From assembly GCA_965661285.1 (NCBI GenBank), contig CBFIDD010000003.1, positions 8,215 to 72,214 on the forward strand: a stretch of 64,000 nucleotides of DNA, given 5' to 3'. Both the position numbers and the translations under genes were made by a program. The notes beneath the pieces were generated by a model, which did not search any database, was not told the DNA's origin, and saw only the letters and a program-made list of their open reading frames with translations. Source of the DNA: Poseidonia sp. (GTDB taxonomy: Archaea; Thermoplasmatota; Poseidoniia; Poseidoniales; Poseidoniaceae). Below, one piece after another: positions 1,582 to 10,860 of the stretch (the stretch's first letter is position 1; each line of letters begins with the position of its first letter).

Positions 1582-2862
1582 ATGTCGCTTGACGACCAAG
1601 CGCTCAAAGACCACTACCGAGAACATGCCATTGACCTCTCCTGGCTTGACAAACCCAGCCAACACGTGTTTCGATGGCGAACCACCGAAAACCGCTGGCT
1701 CACCGCCAAACGACGTGTCCGAGACCATGCCACGTTTCTCAAGGCCATCCGCAACAGCGCTCCTCGCGACGTCTACGTCTCAACGGCCTCCTGGCTCAAC
1801 CCGATTGACCTCCCTCGCTTGAGGGACGACCCCGAAATCTACCCCGTGCTCCTGAATCATTTCGTGGTCTTCGACATCGATGTTGCTCCTTTTTCTATAG
1901 AAAATTTGGCCGGGGCCAAATCCATCGCCTGCGCATTGATGGGATGGCTTGAAGAACACGAAAACCTCGACCTCCGAAGCGTTTCATTCTCGGGCTCCAA
2001 GGGCTTCCACCTCATCTACGACGACCCCGACAGGGAGGCGTTCGCCATCGCTGACCCCAAAGAGCGAGAACTGGCCGTCAAGGCACAACGCAAGGCCCTG
2101 CTGGACCGTGTGGTCGAGGCTGGCTTTGCCGTCGACACCAAGGTGACCGCCGACACGCGCCGTATTCTCCGTCTTCCCGGCAGTCTTCATGGCAGCACCG
2201 GATATGCATGCACCCGCATCACCGTTGAGGCACTGAACGGCCCGCTGGAGGACCTGTTGAGCACGCTCTACCGGCACCCCTCGGCTGACGAGATCCCACA
2301 ACGGGTTGACCCACCACCTGTTCAAACGAGCAACAAACCAGAGCCGAAGCCCGCAACCCAACCTGCTGAACCTTGGTTCAAGCTTCGAGTGAACACCCAC
2401 GTGCAGGGGACGAAGAACCGCCATGTGTTGATGATGTGGCTGCCAAAATCGTGGGGTGCCCCGCTCAAGGCCATGGACCGTGCTCTCGAATGGATTGAAC
2501 ACGACAACCTCGGCCCCTGCAGTTTTTGGCGCCACAACAAGCGCGTGCTGATGCTCTGCCCGCTGGCGATTCCTCGTCCAAAACTCGTGAAGATGTACAA
2601 GCGCCGTGGCCTGCCGCTGTCCCAATCAAAGTTGAAGCAACGTGAGCACCAGTGGACGTCGCTAACCCCACCGGAAGTGAACGGCATCGAGGAAGCCGAG
2701 CCGGAATTGATGGGCATGTACGGCGTGGCGTATGAGGGTGTACCGCTGTATTCGCGTCAGCATCTGGAACTCGAACGGCGGCTCGGCGTTCATCGAGAAC
2801 TCCCGGCTCACGAACTCTGCGGCCAGGCCGAACCGACCTTTGACATCGTGTCCATGTCGTGA
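1582..2862 (+). CDS. priS: Archaeo-eukaryotic primase small subunit (PriS-like AEP) with a ~140-aa C-terminal extension
   Basis: The three AEP motifs are present: motif I VVFDIDV (DxD), motif II FSGSKGFHLIY (SGxxGxH) and motif III RRILRLPGSLHGSTG. The gene lies 10 nt downstream of sucD. Confidence 0.6.
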   Translation: MSLDDQALKDHYREHAIDLSWLDKPSQHVFRWRTTENRWLTAKRRVRDHATFLKAIRNSAPRDVYVSTASWLNPIDLPRLRDDPEIYPVLLNHFVVFDIDVAPFSIENLAGAKSIACALMGWLEEHENLDLRSVSFSGSKGFHLIYDDPDREAFAIADPKERELAVKAQRKALLDRVVEAGFAVDTKVTADTRRILRLPGSLHGSTGYACTRITVEALNGPLEDLLSTLYRHPSADEIPQRVDPPPVQTSNKPEPKPATQPAEPWFKLRVNTHVQGTKNRHVLMMWLPKSWGAPLKAMDRALEWIEHDNLGPCSFWRHNKRVLMLCPLAIPRPKLVKMYKRRGLPLSQSKLKQREHQWTSLTPPEVNGIEEAEPELMGMYGVAYEGVPLYSRQHLELERRLGVHRELPAHELCGQAEPTFDIVSMS

Positions 2863-3026: not shown

Positions 3027-3815
3027 TTGACACTGCTTGACCCAAACGACCGGAGAGGTCGGTCTCACGCTGGGGCACGAAAATTTAATGTCGCTGCAAA
3101 ACTGTTTTTGTCTGTAATCATTGCGCTGGCCGGCCTCCCTGTGTTGGTCATCGGGTTCATGATAAGCGCTGTTGAGCCCATTCTCATCGGAAGTTGCTTC
3201 TTTCTTCCACTTGCGCTCACAATATTCAGCATCCTTCGAAAAGAAGGAACTGAGTTGTTGCAGGATCCAAACAGTATGTTGAACCGGCCGGTAGGAGGAG
3301 GAAGAAAGGGCCCCGCGATGGGGAGCATGCCCGTACAGATGGCTGGACGAGGGTCAAGACTTGACCGATACCAGTCGGTCATGTTCAGATTGCGACTGGC
3401 GCCCACCAGTGGCCAAACGACGACATCGCTCATGGTGCAACACAAACACTGGTTCAACGGGGGCGAGAAAGCCGCACGCGCCTTTTTCAATCATCCACAA
3501 GTCGTCAAGGCCCTTGATTTGGGTGGCAACAACGACACAACCCCCAAGAACACCAAGGCCTCATCAAGACCACGGAAAACAGCACGAAGGAAGGCCAAAC
3601 CAGCAGGAAAAACGACCGATTTGAACAACGACGCCTTTTGGGGAAACCTTGAGCAAAAGGCTGCCAGCTCCGTTCCTGCGGCCGATGGTGAGTGCGGCAT
3701 GGTTCAATGTTCCAACGAAGTCAATGCCTTCAGCTTCCAGTGCTTCGAATGCCGTCGTCGAATTTGCGCCTCTTGCGGGAACAACGGTGTGTTGTGCCAT
3801 ACGTGCGCCTCATAG
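3027..3815 (+). CDS. Hypothetical membrane protein with two predicted TM helices, a basic K/R-rich linker and a C-terminal Cys-rich zinc-ribbon-like tail (CGMVQC...CFECRRRICASCGNNGVLCHTC)
   Basis: The ORF starts with TTG; a later start is possible. Hydrophobic segments LFLSVIIALAGLPVLVIGF and ILIGSCFFLPLALTIFSIL support the TM helices. Its 3' end overlaps the helicase 3' end convergently. Confidence 0.4.
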   Translation: MTLLDPNDRRGRSHAGARKFNVAAKLFLSVIIALAGLPVLVIGFMISAVEPILIGSCFFLPLALTIFSILRKEGTELLQDPNSMLNRPVGGGRKGPAMGSMPVQMAGRGSRLDRYQSVMFRLRLAPTSGQTTTSLMVQHKHWFNGGEKAARAFFNHPQVVKALDLGGNNDTTPKNTKASSRPRKTARRKAKPAGKTTDLNNDAFWGNLEQKAASSVPAADGECGMVQCSNEVNAFSFQCFECRRRICASCGNNGVLCHTCAS

Positions 3816-6581
3816 GTAGAGGCTCTTGCGGTGAAGCGTCGCCTCAGGGGTCATGCCGCTGGCTTGGACCTGTTCGAGGCGGAATTTCCCTTCTTTGTTG
3901 TGCGCATAGAAGAGTTCGCTCTCGCTGAATTTCTCGTCCCAATGTCGTTTGAACACCTCGGCCTTCGCCTTCGAACTGGCAAGGGCCGACGGTACGTTGT
4001 GAAACATCACCAAATGTTGACGATGCGGGCGGATGTATTTCGCCAACACCTCGGGAAGCAATCTCGTGAGCCACGTCTCATAAGGGAACAGCGCCGCTCG
4101 GGAAATCACGTACCTCGGGTTCTCAAGTGGTGAGAGCACCTCTTCGAGACACTTCGAAAAGAGGGTGGCTTCTTCTGCTGTGGAATTCGCAAGGTGCATT
4201 CGAATCCAGCCCCCTCCTCGGTCTCCACCTGCCGCCTCAGTAGCTGGCGCCAACTGGTTGGTTTCAATGAGCGCACTCACAATGACCTCGCTGATGGCAA
4301 TGGTCAGCGATTCATCGTTCCAAGGGCTACCGGGTTCGGACATACCGATTCCCTCACTCGGGGCCAGTTTCTTTTCCACGGCATCCTTGGGTTTGGCGTT
4401 GAACGGCTGGCCGATACCCCAGAGCTCACGAGTCCGAGCGCGCATCTTGGACCGCTTCAACATCTCTTCGTTGAACATCGCCATGCCCTCGTGAACCCCG
4501 ATCGGTTTGGCGCTCACGAACGCCGGGTGAACGTGGCCTGGGCCCTTCTCAATGGCGCCGTCATCGCCGACCCCGTACAGCTGCTTGTGTTTTCGTTTGA
4601 AGCGTTTGTAATCACTGAAACCTGAATCAAATTCATCGGCCAGGCAAATGACGTCCCAGTTGTTGGCCACCTTCTCGGGCCAATGTTTGTCCAAACGAAT
4701 GCTGCGGCCTCGAAGTTGGTTGATGCTCATGTTCGTGGTCACGGACGTCAGGTCGATCAGCACGTTGATGCGCGAAGCGTCCCATCCCTCGCCCATGAGC
4801 CCACGCGTACCGATGAGACATCGAGTGAAACCTTCTTGGAAAAATTCGGTGATCATGGTGGAATAGTGACGTGGCACCCAGTCCTTTCCTGAACCGGAAA
4901 TCTCGTGGTAGCGACCCGAGACCACATCGCTGAGATTTATTTTCAAACGGCGTTCTGCAATCCATGCTCGCGCTTTTTCAAGAAAGGCCTCTGCCAAGTC
5001 GTCGTCCACCAACACGGTGCTGCCCGTCATCAAGATGGGGTCGAGCATGTCACCGGCCGGGCACGCGACCAAGTGGCGGAAGGCGGCGACGGCCCCCCCG
5101 GCCTCTTCGTCAAGCACATCGTCGACGAGCAATGTTGAGGAGGTCTTCTCAAAATCAGTGATCACCACGGCTCGAATGATGTTGCCGAGGTTTTGCATTT
5201 CTTCTCCGAGGATGGTGCTCAGCGCTTCGCATTTGGCGTTACTGTAGGCAAGAATCCGGTTGATGGGGGAGGCGCATTGTTGCCAGCCGGTTTCTGTGAT
5301 TTGCCACCCAAGCAAGCGGTAGTGAAGAGCGGTGCGCTCGGCTTTGGCTTGGTCGTTGGTGTTGCTTGACAGACGCAGCCCAAGACGAACATACTCTGAG
5401 ATGATATGCACTAACGTATCGCTGCGGTGATTTGTTGTAAACTCCAGGCCGTGGTCCCCCTTGAGCTGCTCGTCCGAGAGGGGAGGAACACCAGGTGGTA
5501 GGTCCCTGCCTTGAATCATCAAATATTCTCTGTGAATTTGACGAATGTGGCGTTGTTCCCTTTCGGTGTGCTCGTGCCAAGGGTAAGCCTGGAGTTCTTG
5601 TTCAATCCACTCGGTCAGCGGCAGGATGGCGCCTTCACCTTCCGAGGACTCGTTGAGTTGGTCAACGATGCTGTCGAAGGTCTCGTTCACGTCTCGGATA
5701 AACTCAAATTCCTTTCGGGCAGGTCGGACGAAATAGCACAGGTCCTGGTAGGGTGCAAGGTTCGAGTCCCTTACCAGTGCGGGAACCGGTACCTCGTAGT
5801 CAATCTCACCTAGGAAATCCATGTACCGCTCCGCATCCTCGTCCTTAGCACCATCAAGATCCGGCGGCGTTGCAGTGAGGCCAAGGACGATGGGGTCGTC
5901 AAAGAATTCTTTCAGTTGATGAAGCACTCGGCCCCAATGGTGGAGCAGGTGATGACACTCGTCGAGAATGATGAGCCCGATGCCGGCCTCTTTCAGTCGA
6001 AGCAGCGTTGTGCGCGAAGATTCATGCAAGGTCCAGAGAGCATTGCCGTTCTTTGCGTAGTCATCCCGGACCTTCTTTCTGTACACCTTCAAGCGCTGGC
6101 CAAAATAGGTTGGATTCTTCTCTTCCAAGTCGGCAATCCATGTCTCAGCTGAAGAGATGTCGCTCGCCTCCTCTTTTTCCACCAACTTTTCCGCCCACAG
6201 CATCAAGGCGGATTCATCCAAACCCTCGCCGCCACGTTTTGGCATGGTCACCGATTGGTAGGTCAGTGAGGTCAACAAGCCGGGTCGCTGCGGGTCAATG
6301 CTGACTTGGTCATCCTTCCCGTCGAGGTCGAACAGGTCGGTTCGGGCGGCCCACTGCGCTTGAATCGCAGAGTTGGGCGAGAGGACCAGGGCCGGTTTGC
6401 GGACCAAGTCCGCCCAGACATAGAGCCCAAGCACGGTTTTGCCTGAACCCGGCGGGGCGACGATGTGCAGCCGTTTTTCGTCTGCATTGAGTTGGGGTTG
6501 AATGACCGAGACAGCCGCAACCTGCGAGGGACGAAGTGTACCGTCGAATCGAATGTTCCCAAAGTCGGCTTCGCCGCTCAA
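3810..6581 (-). CDS. Superfamily-2 DEAD/DEAH-box helicase (type III restriction Res-subunit/XPB-like core) with a long inter-domain insert and a ~300-aa C-terminal region of unknown function
   Basis: The helicase motifs are Walker A APPGSGKT, motif II ILDECHHL, motif III LGLTATPP, helicase-C motifs IGTRGLMGEGWDASRINVLIDL and motif VI QLRGRSIR. The start codon is TTG. It lies 12 nt downstream of the Zn-ribbon repeat gene on the same strand. Confidence 0.7.
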   Translation of the reverse strand: MSGEADFGNIRFDGTLRPSQVAAVSVIQPQLNADEKRLHIVAPPGSGKTVLGLYVWADLVRKPALVLSPNSAIQAQWAARTDLFDLDGKDDQVSIDPQRPGLLTSLTYQSVTMPKRGGEGLDESALMLWAEKLVEKEEASDISSAETWIADLEEKNPTYFGQRLKVYRKKVRDDYAKNGNALWTLHESSRTTLLRLKEAGIGLIILDECHHLLHHWGRVLHQLKEFFDDPIVLGLTATPPDLDGAKDEDAERYMDFLGEIDYEVPVPALVRDSNLAPYQDLCYFVRPARKEFEFIRDVNETFDSIVDQLNESSEGEGAILPLTEWIEQELQAYPWHEHTEREQRHIRQIHREYLMIQGRDLPPGVPPLSDEQLKGDHGLEFTTNHRSDTLVHIISEYVRLGLRLSSNTNDQAKAERTALHYRLLGWQITETGWQQCASPINRILAYSNAKCEALSTILGEEMQNLGNIIRAVVITDFEKTSSTLLVDDVLDEEAGGAVAAFRHLVACPAGDMLDPILMTGSTVLVDDDLAEAFLEKARAWIAERRLKINLSDVVSGRYHEISGSGKDWVPRHYSTMITEFFQEGFTRCLIGTRGLMGEGWDASRINVLIDLTSVTTNMSINQLRGRSIRLDKHWPEKVANNWDVICLADEFDSGFSDYKRFKRKHKQLYGVGDDGAIEKGPGHVHPAFVSAKPIGVHEGMAMFNEEMLKRSKMRARTRELWGIGQPFNAKPKDAVEKKLAPSEGIGMSEPGSPWNDESLTIAISEVIVSALIETNQLAPATEAAGGDRGGGWIRMHLANSTAEEATLFSKCLEEVLSPLENPRYVISRAALFPYETWLTRLLPEVLAKYIRPHRQHLVMFHNVPSALASSKAKAEVFKRHWDEKFSESELFYAHNKEGKFRLEQVQASGMTPEATLHRKSLYL

Positions 6582-6593
6582 GGTTCAATCACC

Positions 6594-8261
6594 TCATCGG
6601 CCGGGCGGACCTCGTTTTGGACCGCCGGGGGGACCCTTCTTTTTGGGGCCGGGAGGACCTCGTTTTGGGCCGCCGGGGGGACCCTTCTTTTTGGGACCGG
6701 GAGGACCGCCAGGGCCGCTCTTCTTCGGACCGCCGGGGGGACCGCCAGGGGGACTGCTTTCCTTCGGACCGGGAGGACCGCCGGGACCGCCTTTCTTCGG
6801 ACCGCCGGGGGGACCCTTCTTTTTGGGACCGGGAGGACCGCCGGGACCGCCTTTCTTAGGACCGCCAGGAGGACCGCTCTTCTTCGGGCCGGGAGGACCG
6901 CCAGGACCGCCTTTCTTCGGACCGCCGGGAGGGCCCTTCTTTTTGCGACCGGGAGGACCGCCAGGACCGCTTTTCTTCGGACCGCCGGGAGGGCCCCTCT
7001 TCTTCGGGCCGGGTGGGCCGCCGCTCTTCTTTGGACCCGGGGGGCCGCCTTTCTTCGGGCCGGGTGGGCCACCCCGCAAAGGAGCCGGTTCGTCTTCTTC
7101 CTCCTCTTCGTCTTCGAACATGGCACCGCAGTGTGGACAGACCGGGTCGCTTTCCTTCACCAGACCATCACAGATTTCACAAGCAAACATTTCCTCATCT
7201 GAGGCTTCTTCACCAATCTTCTCTGTTTTCCCGTCCTTTGAGCGGAACATGGTGATGCTGCAGGATAAATCAAAACCTTTCAGCGCGAGTTCGGTTTGAA
7301 TGGCGTGCTCAAAGGCTTGAGTGAGATCGTCGGGCGAGTCCAAAACACGCCCATCATCCACATACGTGATGTTGACCTCAAACAGGTCGTCGGCCAATTT
7401 TGTTTGAGGCGCCTCTACGGCAACCCCTCGCTTCCGAGCAACACGGCGAACGGCGACCTCGGAAATGCGGCGTAGAAGGGCTTCATTTGGAGCGTCTTCT
7501 GCGGGTGTACCAAGAGCTCCAGCCATGATGTCGGCCGCAGGATTGCTGGTTTCGCTGCCACGAAGGTGGGCAGGCAGTTCACCTCCACCGAGATTTGCGA
7601 GGACGGAGGAGGCTGGTGACTGGTTCATCGAAAGCCATTGATTCCGACGCTCGTCTTTCACTGCTCGTTCGGCTTGAGCCAAGCGATTCACCATGGCGTC
7701 TGTAGGAGAATTCGCAGGGTTTTGGGCGACTTTTGTGCCCCCGGCAGACAATGGCGAGACATTGTTCGAAGTCGGCAAGGCGCCGCTGCCAATGGACGGG
7801 CCACGTTGGGGAGTTGGCATGTCGTTCATCGGTGCCTGCACATTGGTTGGCATGACGTTGCCATGTTGTGGAGGAAGCTGACCGGGAGGGAATTGGTTTG
7901 GCTGGGCCTGGTTGGGCTGGATTTGGTTCGGCGGGTATTGATTGGGAGGAAATCCGCCTTGAATTGGATGCTGGGGGTAGGTGCCCGGTGGCAGGTTTTG
8001 TTGCTGATGAATCCCTTGTGCCATGCCTTGGAGCATGTCGGGGGGCACCTGCCCCATCTGGTTCATGTTGTTTTCTTGCTGCATGCGTTGTGCCTGTCCC
8101 GATACGGGGTCAAACGAGCGTTGCTGAGGAGGGAAGGGAGGGATGGCTTGGTTTGGTGGGGGGGCGAAGCCACCTGCGACCGAAGTGTCTTGCCGAGCAC
8201 CGCATTCGGGGCAGAACATGCTGTCTGCTGGAATCTGCTCCCCACAGGCATTGCAGTTCAT
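6594..8261 (-). CDS. Low-complexity protein with two zinc ribbons, a Q/N/P-rich prion-like region and a basic collagen-like (GPPGPKK)n C-terminal tail
   Basis: The N-terminus reads MNCNACGEQIPADSMFCPECGARQD. A ~110-aa Q/N/P-rich stretch follows (NQYPPNQIQPNQAQPNQFPPGQLPPQ). The second ribbon is CEICDG...CPHCG. After an acidic EDEEEEEDE stretch come ~160 aa of GPPGGPKK(G/S)GPGGPPGPKK repeats. Confidence 0.6.
   Translation of the reverse strand: MNCNACGEQIPADSMFCPECGARQDTSVAGGFAPPPNQAIPPFPPQQRSFDPVSGQAQRMQQENNMNQMGQVPPDMLQGMAQGIHQQQNLPPGTYPQHPIQGGFPPNQYPPNQIQPNQAQPNQFPPGQLPPQHGNVMPTNVQAPMNDMPTPQRGPSIGSGALPTSNNVSPLSAGGTKVAQNPANSPTDAMVNRLAQAERAVKDERRNQWLSMNQSPASSVLANLGGGELPAHLRGSETSNPAADIMAGALGTPAEDAPNEALLRRISEVAVRRVARKRGVAVEAPQTKLADDLFEVNITYVDDGRVLDSPDDLTQAFEHAIQTELALKGFDLSCSITMFRSKDGKTEKIGEEASDEEMFACEICDGLVKESDPVCPHCGAMFEDEEEEEDEPAPLRGGPPGPKKGGPPGPKKSGGPPGPKKRGPPGGPKKSGPGGPPGRKKKGPPGGPKKGGPGGPPGPKKSGPPGGPKKGGPGGPPGPKKKGPPGGPKKGGPGGPPGPKESSPPGGPPGGPKKSGPGGPPGPKKKGPPGGPKRGPPGPKKKGPPGGPKRGPPGR
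6597..7075. repeat. Imperfect tandem DNA repeat, with a ~60-nt unit in about 8 copies, encoding the (GPPGGPKKGGPGGPPGPKKK)n tail of the upstream gene
   Basis: Units such as ggaccgccggg...ttctttttgggaccgggaggaccgccgggaccgcctttcttc are visibly repeated on the + strand. They generate the spurious overlapping ORFs at 6465-7299. Confidence 0.75.
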
Positions 8262-8383
8262 GGTGTCACCCCCTCGCAGTGTTTGCTCAGGCTACTGTCC
8301 CTAAAGCATTGCGTCAAGATGCCCTCAAATCAGTCTGTCCGAGCCCAAACGGTGTCAGGTGGAAACGAAGGACGAATATCTTC

Positions 8384-9442
8384 ATGCGGCAAAGGGTACT
8401 GGCAGGATTGGAGAGGGTTGATGTGCCGGTTTTGGTCAATGAAAAAATCGACCGCCTTCTCGAGACCACCTCACGTTCCTTTTATCCCACACTGAAATAT
8501 CTGCCCAAGAAAACACGGGGGCAGATTGGGCTGCTCTATCTTCTCGCCAGAGTTGCCGATACCATTGCCGATTCCAAGGTTGGTGAAACAGCGCTCCTCA
8601 CCGATCATTTGACCGCCTACAACGATGCTGTTCAAGGTCGGAGTAAGGACCTGCCCGACCTCAGCGCCCTCGCCGATATCCAAACCAACGAACACGAGGC
8701 AGAACTCCTACGCAACGTGGTGGATGTCGTTGAAGGTCTCCAGGTGTACAATAACGAAGATCAACAACGCATGCTGGAATGCCTCGACATCATTGTCGAG
8801 GGCCAACTGCTTGACCTTGCCCGATTCGGCCCAGCCAACGAAGGTGGAACCGTCTCTTCACTCAACAACGAGGAGGAACTCGATGACTACACCTTCAGAG
8901 TCGCAGGCTGCGTCGGTGTGTTCTGGACGAAGATGTCGCTGGCGCACCTGATGAAACTCTCCCCCGAGGATGAGAAACTGTTCATTGAGCGCGGCATACG
9001 CTTTGGCAAAGCCTTGCAGATGATCAACATCCTTCGAGACATACCGGAAGACTTGCGATTTGGGAGGTGCTACATCCCAAAATCATCGCTGGAGGAAGCG
9101 GGGCTCAAACCCGAGGAATTGCTTGACGACGAAAACCTCGCTGCCTTTCGCCCCCTGTACGACCGCTATTTGGATTTGACCAACGAGCATCTCGAAGCCG
9201 CAACGGCCTACATACGCATGATACCTGAAACCCAATTTCGGCTCAAGGCCTCGTGCATGTTGCCGGTTCTGGTCGGCCAGCGGACAGTCACGCTTCTACG
9301 AGAGGGAAACATCCTCAATTCCCAAGAGCGAATCAAAGTCACCCGCGACGAGATGAAGACCTATGCTCGTAAATTACTCCGAGCACTCATTATCCCGGGA
9401 GGCGTAAAACGACTTCTTGAAAAGAACAGGGACAAGTCATGA
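8384..9442 (+). CDS. Squalene/phytoene synthase family protein (head-to-head trans-isoprenyl diphosphate synthase), paralog 1
   Basis: Family motifs are SRSFYPTLKYLP, the first Asp motif ARVADTIAD (DxxxD) and the second motif MINILRDIPEDL. The N-terminal 172 codons of ORF 7868 were discarded because they overlap the convergent gene ending at 8261. Confidence 0.7.
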   Translation: MRQRVLAGLERVDVPVLVNEKIDRLLETTSRSFYPTLKYLPKKTRGQIGLLYLLARVADTIADSKVGETALLTDHLTAYNDAVQGRSKDLPDLSALADIQTNEHEAELLRNVVDVVEGLQVYNNEDQQRMLECLDIIVEGQLLDLARFGPANEGGTVSSLNNEEELDDYTFRVAGCVGVFWTKMSLAHLMKLSPEDEKLFIERGIRFGKALQMINILRDIPEDLRFGRCYIPKSSLEEAGLKPEELLDDENLAAFRPLYDRYLDLTNEHLEAATAYIRMIPETQFRLKASCMLPVLVGQRTVTLLREGNILNSQERIKVTRDEMKTYARKLLRALIIPGGVKRLLEKNRDKS

Positions 9443-9513: not shown

Positions 9514-10860
9514 TTGAGGCGAGGTCTCATAAACAAAGGATGCAAGGGCTGGCCGGTTAGGATGCTTGAACGCCGCAAACCGCTCGATTTGCTCTTCCCG
9601 CTCAAAGGGAATGCATCGAGCAGAAACGGCGAGGAAGAGGTCCGACCTCCGACCACGCTTGACCGGCTTCGAGCAGGTGTGACCCTCGCTCGGGATGCCG
9701 TCAAGGCCGTCAGCGTAACGGCCATGGAGGCGCTCAAAGAAGGTGCATCGTTCATCGGCATCGTGGGTGAAACGAACGAGTTGGTCGACCCGTTTGCTCA
9801 CCTGGATGCACCTATTTGGTCGGAAAAACCTCCCGCTGAATTGCACAAACTGGCCTATCGCTACTGTGAAGAACTGACCATGAGGGAAGCGGGCAATTTC
9901 TACCACTCTTTCAAGTATCTGCCCGACGAACAACGCTTGGCCATGTGCGCCATCTACGCCTTCTGCCGTCGAGCAGACGACATCGCCGACGGTGATTGGG
10001 CCGATCGATTCCCCGGCAGCAAAGGCGAGTTGGACCCTGAAGCCACGGCCTACCGTAACCAACTGGAATCGCTGCAAGACCGAGGAACGATCCTTGACGA
10101 GGAAGCCTACCTCAACAAGATCACACAACTCTTCTTTTTCCGGAAAAAATTGTCCACCTGCTACGGCGATGTGCATTCCACGGACCCCGTGTTCCTCGCC
10201 CTCAAAGATACTGTCCAGCGCTACAACATTCCTCGAGAAGTCTTTGACGACCTCATCTCCGGCATGGAAGACGACCTCTACAACAACCGCTATCGTACCT
10301 TCGACGAGCTTTACGTCTACTGCTACCGTGTTGCATCCGTTGTGGGCCTGATGTGCATTGAGGTGTACGGCTACGACAATCCCATGGCACGGAAATACGC
10401 AGAATCATGGGGTATTTTCATGCAACTGACCAACGTGTTGCGAGACGTTGGTGAAGATATCCAGCGAGACCGAGTCTATCTGCCGCTCGACGAACTTGAA
10501 CGAAACGACATGACCGAGGAGGAACTCGACGGGAAAATCGTCCTCAACAAGCACTGGGAGCCCTATTGCCGACAATATGCCGCCCGAGCCCGAACCTACC
10601 TCGAAGAAGCTCGGGCCCTCCTGCCACTGCTTCCTCGACGAACCCGATACTCACCTGCTGCCATGATCGCCTTCTACGATAAGATCCTGCGCCAAATTGA
10701 GAAGCAGCAGGGCGATGTGTTCACCAAGCGCGTCAAACTCAACAAGGTACAGAAGATTTCGCTCGCAGCAGCTGTTTACCTGCGACATCGCTTCCTTCCA
10801 GGCTTCCTCGACCCTGTTTGGGGAGCGCTCGCTCGTGTTGGTGTCCTGCCCAGTGTTTGA
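9514..10860 (+). CDS. Squalene/phytoene synthase family protein, paralog 2 (HpnC/HpnD/CrtB-like). The start is uncertain; alternative ATGs are at 9559 and 9724.
   Basis: Family motifs are NFYHSFKYLPDEQRLAMCAIYAFCRRADDIADG and LTNVLRDVGEDIQRDRVYLPLDEL. Confidence 0.7.
   Translation: MRRGLINKGCKGWPVRMLERRKPLDLLFPLKGNASSRNGEEEVRPPTTLDRLRAGVTLARDAVKAVSVTAMEALKEGASFIGIVGETNELVDPFAHLDAPIWSEKPPAELHKLAYRYCEELTMREAGNFYHSFKYLPDEQRLAMCAIYAFCRRADDIADGDWADRFPGSKGELDPEATAYRNQLESLQDRGTILDEEAYLNKITQLFFFRKKLSTCYGDVHSTDPVFLALKDTVQRYNIPREVFDDLISGMEDDLYNNRYRTFDELYVYCYRVASVVGLMCIEVYGYDNPMARKYAESWGIFMQLTNVLRDVGEDIQRDRVYLPLDELERNDMTEEELDGKIVLNKHWEPYCRQYAARARTYLEEARALLPLLPRRTRYSPAAMIAFYDKILRQIEKQQGDVFTKRVKLNKVQKISLAAAVYLRHRFLPGFLDPVWGALARVGVLPSV

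Follow-up and report, generated by a model that had tools for sequence, protein, structure and literature searches.

In the structure of Archaeoglobus fulgidus XPB, a helicase of superfamily II (SF2), an N-terminal damage-recognition domain is present, a RED motif follows motif III, and a thumb is inserted in the second RecA-like domain (RecA2). In Hef and RIG-I-like families, a helical insertion (Hel2i) lies inside RecA2. Here we compare these families with a helicase encoded in the 64-kb window, that is, the whole stretch of DNA analyzed, from contig CBFIDD010000003.1 of assembly GCA_965661285.1; all coordinates are window positions. The helicase gene (3810 to 6581, minus strand, TTG start, 923 aa) follows a gene on the same strand that encodes a zinc-ribbon protein, called ZnR (6594 to 8261, 555 aa), after a 12-nt spacer. 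It is convergent, with a 6-nt overlap of the 3' ends, with the gene of a membrane Zn protein, called memZn (3027 to 3815, plus strand, 262 aa), and a PriS-like primase is encoded next to the latter (1582 to 2862, plus strand, 426 aa). An initial annotation of this DNA had suggested that these genes could form a replication or repair module of an integrated element or a defense-like system. The four open reading frames (ORFs) and the spacer that it listed were all confirmed; the locus combines an SF2 helicase from a family without a name and an unusual partner that is specific to the lineage, and it is no new kind of system. It comes from a Poseidonia-like MGIIa archaeon of the Poseidoniales (marine group II, MGII), an uncultured order that ranks among the most abundant archaea of the plankton and whose biology is accessible mainly through conserved genes of unknown function.

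Comparison of the helicase with described SF2 families

The helicase is a predicted DExH ATPase of the COG1061/ResIII type. Its first RecA-like domain (RecA1, residues 10 to 285, window positions 5727 to 6554, minus strand), as delimited by motifs, the Pfam ResIII match and an AlphaFold2 (AF2) model, contains the Q motif RPSQ (17 to 20), motif I PPGSGKT (43 to 49), motifs Ia and Ib, motif II DECHH (207 to 211), which had been read as DEAH in the initial annotation, motif III TATPP (236 to 240) and, in the model, a helical insertion at about residues 113 to 200. According to AF2 secondary structure and the family alignment, an all-helical inter-domain insert follows (residues 289 to 470, 5172 to 5717, minus strand), which at about 180 aa is shorter than the 240 aa initially estimated. 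RecA2 (residues 471 to 650, 4632 to 5171, minus strand) carries motif V GEGWD (597 to 601) and motif VI QLRGRSIR (622 to 629). Motifs Q, I, Ia, Ib, II, III, V and VI are hence distributed over two RecA-like domains, as in other members of SF2, and are invariant over 44 homologs (alignments A1 and A2). The AF2 model obtained with a 44-sequence alignment (m7a1240765920; pLDDT 85.2, pTM 0.81) shows RecA1 with its helical sub-insertion, the all-helical insert, RecA2, a connector and a C-terminal alpha/beta domain, in this order.

The C-terminal part (residues 651 to 923, 3813 to 4631, minus strand) had been taken for a single domain of about 300 aa that could not be assigned. Its length was nearly right, with some 294 residues after motif VI, but these correspond to a connector (651 to 745) and a family-specific alpha/beta domain (746 to 923), and it is the latter that has no sequence relative in Pfam or the Protein Data Bank (PDB): only noise was obtained for it from Pfam, using the window protein and 17 family members, and from a profile search of PDB sequences. 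R, Y, R, P and W are invariant in this domain; an acidic catalytic set is not among them and, judged from the alignment, these residues do not look catalytic.

The XPB- or ResIII-like core noted initially was recovered by several methods. Pfam ResIII (PF04851) matched residues 15 to 240 with an E value of 4e-16 and was the sole Pfam family above threshold; across the helicase family, only ResIII and DEAD were found. XPB/Rad25/Ssl2 was the best match to RecA1 by both sequence profile and fold. A search of PDB sequences with the family profile retrieved XPBII and Rad25 at 1e-13 to 1e-15 (XPBII at 4.5e-15), in RecA1 only, and a Foldseek search of the PDB returned Sulfolobus tokodaii XPB-Bax1 and XPBII first, with E values of about 1e-13 (6p4o and 5tnu). 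The next matches were MDA5, RIG-I, LGP2, TFIIH XPB and Hef, with TM-scores of only about 0.3 and identities of 12 to 18%. Motif III (TATP) and motif V (EGWD) are of a kind that we take to resemble the XPB or Res type.

The curated models considered for XPB and Rad25 were NF045503 and TIGR00603 (rad25). The NCBIfam XPB equivalog NF045503, however, scored 26.6 bits against a cut-off of 610, over residues 15 to 80 only. It was the top match, at 25 to 59 bits, for all seven family members tested, and no curated NCBIfam model fitted these seven. There are several further differences from XPB. The Walker A motif of the helicase starts at residue 43, which leaves no room for the damage-recognition domain. 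No RED motif follows motif III; the helicase reads DLDGAKDEDAERY after TATPP, and the family consensus lacks the R-E-D residues. The protein is twice as large as XPB, with the 180-aa helical insert and a C-terminal extension of 270 aa. Finally, unlike in the archaeal XPB-Bax1 operon, there is no gene for a Bax1-like nuclease nearby, and ZnR, memZn, PriS, sucCD and SQS gave no nuclease match in Pfam. Orthology to XPB was therefore rejected on model score, damage-recognition domain, RED motif and Bax1 partner. The initial annotation had considered that the helicase might be a universally conserved single-copy core gene of the lineage such as an XPB orthologue; it is indeed conserved in the order and no second copy was evident, but it is not XPB. 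By its motifs and profile matches, it is a member of SF2 that is XPB-like in RecA1 and far below the cut-off for XPB itself.

Other described families fit less well. Relatives carry source names such as "superfamily II DNA or RNA helicase" or "Type III restriction enzyme, res subunit", and the helicase matches type III Res and COG1061 proteins through ResIII, a generic helicase-domain model that is no evidence of restriction. A type III Res subunit was rejected as a candidate: there is no Mod methyltransferase in the window neighborhood or in syntenic loci, no nuclease-type invariant residues occur in the C-terminal domain, and the synteny is of a housekeeping kind. Hef, RIG-I-like and Dicer helicases gave high-probability Foldseek matches over 650 to 800 columns and also have a helical domain inserted in the motor. 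Yet the TM-scores were about 0.3 and the identities 12 to 16%, there is no RIG-I-type C-terminal domain or Hef nuclease, and the insert of the window helicase sits between RecA1 and RecA2 in the AF2 model, unlike Hel2i. A literature search found no publication on the helicase family or on ZnR.

ZnR and its pairing with the helicase

ZnR begins with a four-Cys zinc ribbon (residues 1 to 25, 8187 to 8261, minus strand) with CxxC at residues 3 and 17, matched by Pfam Zn_Ribbon_1 at residues 3 to 22 (E value 8.5e-8). The initial annotation had described a double ribbon here. The single CxxC...CxxC pair (residues 3 to 20) corresponds to one Zn_Ribbon_1-type ribbon, and DZR (PF12773) was rejected, with 25.2 bits against the 27.3 needed and a match to model positions 1 to 22 of 45, which is half of the model. 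The low-complexity region that follows (residues 26 to 185, 7707 to 8186, minus strand) was found to span about 160 aa instead of the 110 given before. By composition it is rich in P, Q, G and N (P 20%, Q 17%, N 10%), and its motifs are partly conserved among orthologs. Next is a conserved core (residues 186 to 349, 7215 to 7706, minus strand) that consists of a helical segment and an alpha-beta-beta-alpha-beta-beta domain (260 to 349). It has many invariant columns in the ortholog alignment (A4), and the domain has block-mean pLDDT values of about 86 to 94 in the AF2 model (me269b0e8cd9f). Pfam gave no match to the core, and a fold search of the PDB with it gave nothing significant; the best match, with an E value of 0.0097, was the C-terminal domain of a CDF transporter, and other weak ones (E values of 0.0097 or above) were the KH-containing proteins uS3 and Era.

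The second four-Cys ribbon and the acidic stretch reported initially were both present. The ribbon (residues 357 to 382, 7116 to 7193, minus strand) is matched by Pfam Zn_ribbon_3 at residues 357 to 380 (E value 5.4e-9), and its cysteines, C192, C195, C206 and C209 in the numbering of A4, are invariant. The acidic stretch (residues 383 to 395, 7077 to 7115, minus strand) has a net charge of -9 and is kept in orthologs. The remaining 160 aa form a Gly/Pro/Lys repeat tail (residues 396 to 555, 6597 to 7076, minus strand), defined by composition and repeat analysis (Gly 36%, Pro 35%, Lys 21%). Its length and basic character (net charge +38) are as first described, but it is not collagen-like: the Gly fraction by phase is 0.43/0.34/0.32, so that no Gly-X-Y periodicity exists. 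The repeat units are of 7 to 11 residues (GPPGPKK, GGPGGPPGPKK), the basic clusters are spaced by 7 to 11 residues with one gap of 24, and the tandem repeats detected in the DNA (6595 to 7074, periods 24/60/120) are the coding repeat of this tail.

Long, low-complexity, proline-punctuated and polycationic tails are also found in H1 (S/TPKK), mycobacterial HupB and AlgP (PAKK/KPAA), which the ZnR tail resembles in general character only. Such tails bind DNA non-specifically. Unlike these proteins, ZnR has a Gly/Pro-dominated repeat (GPPGPKK / GGPKK) that is joined to zinc ribbons and a Q/N/P-rich region, and it has no histone or HU fold. The whole architecture, that is, ribbon, Q/N/P-rich region, core, second ribbon, acidic patch and Gly/Pro/basic tail, is kept in orthologs, in which the type of tail is constant, with an end resembling ...GPKRGPPR, and its length and sequence vary. 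We retrieved 877 ZnR homologs, and every named one among the 120 listed was from Poseidoniales or Thermoplasmatota. ZnR is a lineage-specific and largely disordered protein, and in this work it was encountered in Poseidoniales-type sequences alone.

The repeat also affects gene calling. The Gly/Pro/Lys repeat DNA (6465 to 7299, both strands) is open in several frames, which gives rise to spurious overlapping ORFs in the window. Tails are frame-shifted or truncated in many public ZnR orthologs (P0423, P0431, P0447, P0448, P0442 and P0469; loci L010, L011 and L055), for which the cause is either that the repeat was wrongly assembled or polished or that its length truly varies.

The ZnR and helicase genes are tightly spaced. 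The C-terminal end of ZnR (...GPPGR) is followed by TGA and by the 12 nt GGTGATTGAACC (6582 to 6593, minus strand) that precede the TTG start of the helicase and contain GGTGA, a Shine-Dalgarno-like motif; a similar motif, GGGGGTGA, lies upstream of the ATG of ZnR. The corresponding spacing is 4, 12 and 14 nt in the orthologous loci L001, L084 and L086, respectively.

Gene order was compared over loci from a scan of the GTDB with one genome per species, which used peptide patterns from the window protein and is hence no census. It returned 74 loci; all titles below phylum level named Poseidoniales, one of them Thalassarchaeaceae. Where a metagenome-assembled genome contributed two loci, they came from nearly identical contigs or were two pieces of a single gene, with no sign of a second helicase copy. 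Helicase homologs were full-length, with 60 to 99% identity, on contigs of up to 2.08 Mb, and the named ones were from Candidatus Poseidoniaceae. The 2.08-Mb contig, whose helicase is 61% identical, has the order ETF-...-ACAD-SQS-SQS-ZnR-helicase-229-aa protein-PriS-sucD-sucC, as in the window. Neighbors were scored by tblastn and ORF inspection in species representatives. ZnR immediately preceded the helicase in 27 of the 42 representatives that had at least 1.8 kb of upstream flank, and memZn and PriS were downstream of it in 33 of the 53 that had at least 2.6 kb of downstream flank.

Five arrangements, four of which recur, can be distinguished (for L109, see below). That of the window and of MGIIa-L is SQS-ZnR-[helicase, memZn(-), PriS(-)]-sucD(-)-sucC(-)-...-NTP-transferase-TIM (arrangement A). 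In a variant of it (A'), L086 reads ZnR-helicase-sucD, without memZn and PriS; L121 and L123 have the same helicase-sucD junction, and their upstream flanks are too short to show ZnR. In the Thalassarchaeaceae-type MGIIb, the order is SQS-[ZnR]-sucD-sucC-NTP-transferase-[helicase, memZn(-), PriS(-)]-TIM (arrangement B). A second Poseidoniaceae clade, with one contig labeled MGIIa-K1, has the helicase in a different conserved context (arrangement C). The operon-like ZnR-helicase pair of the initial annotation is therefore real but restricted to a clade: because the 12-nt spacer carries its own Shine-Dalgarno-like motif, the two genes probably form an operon in one large clade, MGIIa-L, and the pairing is not universal.

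The helicase family outside Poseidoniales

A HMMER search of 1.84 billion cluster representatives revealed 2106 representatives of the helicase family at an E value of 1e-3 or below and 819 at 1e-30 or below, mostly bacterial. The best 150 relatives listed were mostly 880 to 1110 aa long and 31 to 40% identical over query residues of about 10 to 740. Named family members came from Altiarchaeota, candidate division WWE3, Ardenticatenales and Actinomycetota. The closest helicases outside MGII (L094, L096, L098, L101, L117 and L133) were full-length and 45 to 48% identical, and their contigs carry genes with Planctomycete-specific PSD and DUF1552 domains or sulfatases. In a neighbor-joining tree, which is rough and carries no support values, the MGII helicases were sister to this Planctomycetota-type group and nested among bacterial branches, a position that suggests one ancient transfer between bacteria and archaea followed by vertical descent in MGII.

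Two features of the non-MGII proteins stand out. The first is a predicted transmembrane hairpin, called with a Kyte-Doolittle window and no dedicated predictor: 1 or 2 strongly hydrophobic segments of about 20 aa were present in 103 of 157 non-MGII helicases and in none of 123 from MGII. The hairpin lies 130 to 190 residues past motif VI, where the connector gives way to the C-terminal domain; the equivalent site in the window helicase is at residues ~745 to ~755 (window positions ~4317 to 4349). A membrane-anchored SF2 helicase family of this kind appears to be undescribed in the literature searched. The second feature is the fusion of zinc ribbons to the N terminus of the helicase in at least five sets of homologs. 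P0351, P0360 and the corrected ORF L083:1342-4713 have a double ribbon, a Pro/Ala-rich linker and a basic patch; P0131 has three ribbons, P0296 (locus L077) an N-terminal zinc ribbon, P0140 a DUF7577/DZR and P0243 a RING and a DZR. The three fusion sets included in the tree lie on separate branches of it.

The gene neighbors of non-MGII helicases were heterogeneous and included RlmL (in two related loci), RlmI-like and SpoU, PrmC, RtcB, Nei, an M48 peptidase, sugar kinases and transposases. Clustering of 41 co-directional neighbors gave only three two-member clusters, one of which was a duplicate locus pair. No partner family recurs beyond close relatives. The RlmL gene overlaps or abuts the helicase gene downstream of it in L076 (7216 to 8439) and L083 (4710 to 5960), and RlmI-like and SpoU genes do so in L087 (9991 to 11636). 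In two other high-GC bacterial loci (L160:1032-1340 and L161:1793-2104), the gene of a protein of about 100 aa with a single transmembrane segment ends 1 to 4 nt before the helicase start.

Functional readings of the locus and its neighboring genes

We consider it an evenly balanced possibility that ZnR is a detached targeting or regulatory module. Its polycationic tail and its ribbons would attach to nucleic acid, and ZnR would bring the XPB-like motor to its substrate. This proposal arises from the zinc ribbons fused to the helicase N terminus elsewhere, of which ZnR would be the counterpart; in several of these cases the ribbons are followed by a Pro/Ala-rich or basic linker. The tail and ribbons of ZnR would concentrate the motor on nucleic acid, and the motor would use ATP to translocate on duplex nucleic acid and remodel it, as XPB does. 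The fusions offer independent support for a functional link between ZnR and the helicase, although they do not prove it. A role in DNA maintenance, possibly at replication, is favored because PriS recurs in the neighborhood, although the substrate may instead be RNA. If the proposal is true, the part that targets this helicase to its substrate has become a separate, disordered and polycationic protein; otherwise, the locus is simply a case of conserved synteny.

A number of observations weigh against a ZnR that targets the helicase to DNA. ZnR is absent directly upstream of the helicase in 15 of the 42 species representatives. In the MGIIb loci L062 and L097, it stands beside SQS1, with the helicase some 3.3 to 3.4 kb away behind sucDC. 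L104 and L129 have no ZnR at this position, with SQS1 directly before sucD (27 nt and 4 nt, respectively), and the second Poseidoniaceae clade has no ZnR, memZn or PriS at a distance of up to 8 kb from the helicase. The bacterial helicase genes are not preceded by a separate gene for a zinc ribbon. Ribbons of the DZR type occur promiscuously as modules, and of about 160 helicases outside MGII just a few have them. The modeled ZnR core gave no significant structural match. The bacterial neighbors, with RlmL, RlmI-like and SpoU, PrmC and RtcB on the RNA side and Nei on the DNA side, point as much to RNA as to DNA.

Part of this evidence fits the main competing explanation, possible though somewhat unlikely in our judgment, namely that ZnR and the helicase are functionally independent, that their adjacency is inherited gene order and that ZnR is, for example, a nucleoid-associated or condensate-forming protein. 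ZnR remains by SQS1 where the helicase lies elsewhere, the adjacency is missing in over a third of the representatives, the bacterial relatives of the helicase have no conserved partner and, as the whole 20-kb neighborhood is syntenic, adjacency itself says little. On the other hand, independence would not be expected to produce the tight spacing of 4 to 14 nt with a Shine-Dalgarno-like motif inside the spacer, the persistence of the ZnR-helicase pair where PriS and memZn have been lost (L086) or the recurrent zinc-ribbon fusions in the helicase family.

The convergent protein with two transmembrane helices and a zinc finger was as initially described: memZn has transmembrane helices at about residues 22 to 70, a conserved small helical motif, a basic linker and an eight-Cys finger (C223 to C260) with the AN1-compatible spacing C-x4-C-x(10-11)-C-x2-C-x4-C-x2-[CH]-x6-C-x2-C. 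Pfam zf-AN1 (PF01428) matched four of five MGIIb-type orthologs at E values of 8e-4 to 1.4e-2, with about 16 to 20 bits against a gathering score of 27.9, and gave no match to the window copy. Spacing and matches point to an AN1-like zinc finger, which, unlike in AN1 proteins, is fused to a two-helix membrane anchor. The PriS-like protein scored 28.9 bits with Pfam DNA_primase_S (E value 1.7e-6) against a gathering score of 26.8, in agreement with the archaeo-eukaryotic primase (AEP) noted before. AEP motifs I to III are present and intact (FDID at 97 to 100, SGSKGFH at 137 to 143 and RRILRLPGSLH at 193 to 203), and by these motifs the enzyme is predicted to be catalytically intact. Its C-terminal extension of about 200 aa (residues ~230 to 426) had no Pfam match. 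The NCBIfam PriS model gave only a partial match of 47.7 bits against an equivalog cut-off of 577; since such scores are far below equivalog cut-offs, either PriS of MGII is very divergent or the window copy is not the canonical one.

It is unlikely, though conceivable, that the functional unit consists of the helicase, memZn and PriS, as a primase-coupled helicase to which ZnR would be accessory and which would act, for example, in repair synthesis or in restarting replication. The memZn gene adjoins the helicase in 33 of the 53 species representatives, and in every lineage with memZn the 3' ends of the two genes abut or overlap by 0 to 8 nt. The block occurs in different contexts, between ZnR and sucD in MGIIa-L and between NTP-transferase and TIM in MGIIb, and, judged from this gene order, it relocated between families as a unit. 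The AEP motifs are intact, and a third independent arrangement with PriS beside the helicase was seen in L109 (3062 to 7820), which the tree places inside MGII: here the genes for PriS, a 167-aa protein with four Cys and the helicase follow one another on the same strand. The 167-aa protein was considered as a truncated memZn and rejected, as the alignment was unconvincing. The genes of helicase, memZn and PriS stay together in MGIIa-L and in most MGIIb loci. This association was better conserved than the initial annotation had assumed, but it is not universal: neither PriS nor memZn is near the helicase in L086, L121 and L123, in L049 and L129 or in the second Poseidoniaceae clade. Moreover, the genes are convergent and not co-transcribed, the helicase family is mainly bacterial and PriS does not occur in bacteria, and the co-movement of three genes can be a single rearrangement event.

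We regard as quite unlikely that the helicase remodels RNA or ribonucleoproteins in ribosome biogenesis or translation, with ZnR as an RNA-binding cofactor. The rRNA methyltransferase genes coupled to the helicase in two unrelated high-GC bacterial lineages (RlmL in L076 and L083, RlmI-like and SpoU in L087) hint at an RNA-related role for at least part of the family. In addition, PrmC is upstream in L098 and RtcB in L140, an Obg GTPase is near P0290, and an ORF that by eye resembles a DRG-type GTPase lies directly upstream in L056 and 1 or 2 genes upstream in several loci of the second Poseidoniaceae clade. RIG-I, MDA5 and Dicer are among the best structural matches of the helicase, and the weak matches of the ZnR core include the KH-type uS3 and Era. 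However, the neighbors are heterogeneous, with no family that extends beyond close relatives, the best sequence and structure matches are DNA translocases of the XPB type, the ZnR fold matches are not significant (E value of about 0.01), and PriS and Nei point to DNA. A primase-coupled role and a role in RNA or ribosome metabolism both overlap with ZnR as a targeting module or as an independent protein, from which they are inseparable with the present data.

Similarly doubtful, and more speculative in kind, is the idea that ZnR, the helicase and memZn rebuild in trans the single-chain layout of the bacterial proteins (ribbon, SF2 motor, transmembrane hairpin and C-terminal domain), as a split membrane-associated motor that possibly works beside a primase. 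If this were true, the helicase family, with more than 800 clusters, two-thirds of them with a predicted transmembrane hairpin, would represent a new class of membrane-tethered SF2 translocases.

That the region belongs to an integrated mobile element or to an anti-virus defense system, as initially suggested, is highly improbable and can be effectively excluded, since only the superficial combination of primase, helicase and zinc fingers, the ResIII match and a marginal PbeA match speak for it, against housekeeping synteny on Mb-scale chromosomes, typical composition, the absence of tRNA genes and flanking repeats, the scarcity of viral and plasmid relatives and the lack of a methyltransferase or nuclease partner. 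The neighborhood of about 20 kb is syntenic in dozens of Poseidoniales species, on chromosomal contigs of 1 to 2 Mb. The comparison of positions 3.0 to 8.3 kb with the rest of the window, similar to one that the initial annotation had proposed for the contig, revealed no deviation: GC content was 0.55 to 0.60, inside the window range, GC at third codon positions of the four genes was 0.58 to 0.70, mostly within about one standard deviation of the window mean (0.634 ± 0.049), and their codon-usage distances from the window mean were 0.056 to 0.126, compared with a median of 0.115. No tRNA genes were found within 25 kb of the locus and no direct repeats bound the region, the only repeats being the coding repeats of the ZnR tail. 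A PADLOC-DB v2 scan of the four proteins gave only PbeA on the helicase (E value 0.0011, 15.6 bits). No relative was found in viral contigs with the helicase protein, and the family profile retrieved five remote relatives in 2.9 million contigs. BLAST searches of phages and plasmids identified remote relatives in 2 unannotated phage records and 5 non-mobilizable megaplasmids, PHROGs matched the four proteins only through the generic phage "DNA helicase" family phrog_16, and by fold, the BFVD yielded nothing but generic SSL2-like helicases of viruses, with 9 to 14% identity.

Judging from synteny and composition, sucCD-PriS-memZn-helicase-ZnR-SQS-SQS-ACAD is an ordinary, vertically inherited chromosomal cluster of Poseidoniales, and the alternative offered in the initial annotation, chromosomal genes with a lineage-specific helicase partner, was essentially right. 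The tempting reading as a defense island or integrated replicon is thereby removed; left in its place are a large SF2 family, an odd zinc-ribbon protein and a recurrent block of helicase, AN1-like memZn and PriS. In the same cluster, two tandem SQS_PSY paralogs (8357 to 9442 and 9514 to 10860, plus strand) are divergent to ZnR, and the ORF at 7868 to 9442 is an over-extended reading of the first.

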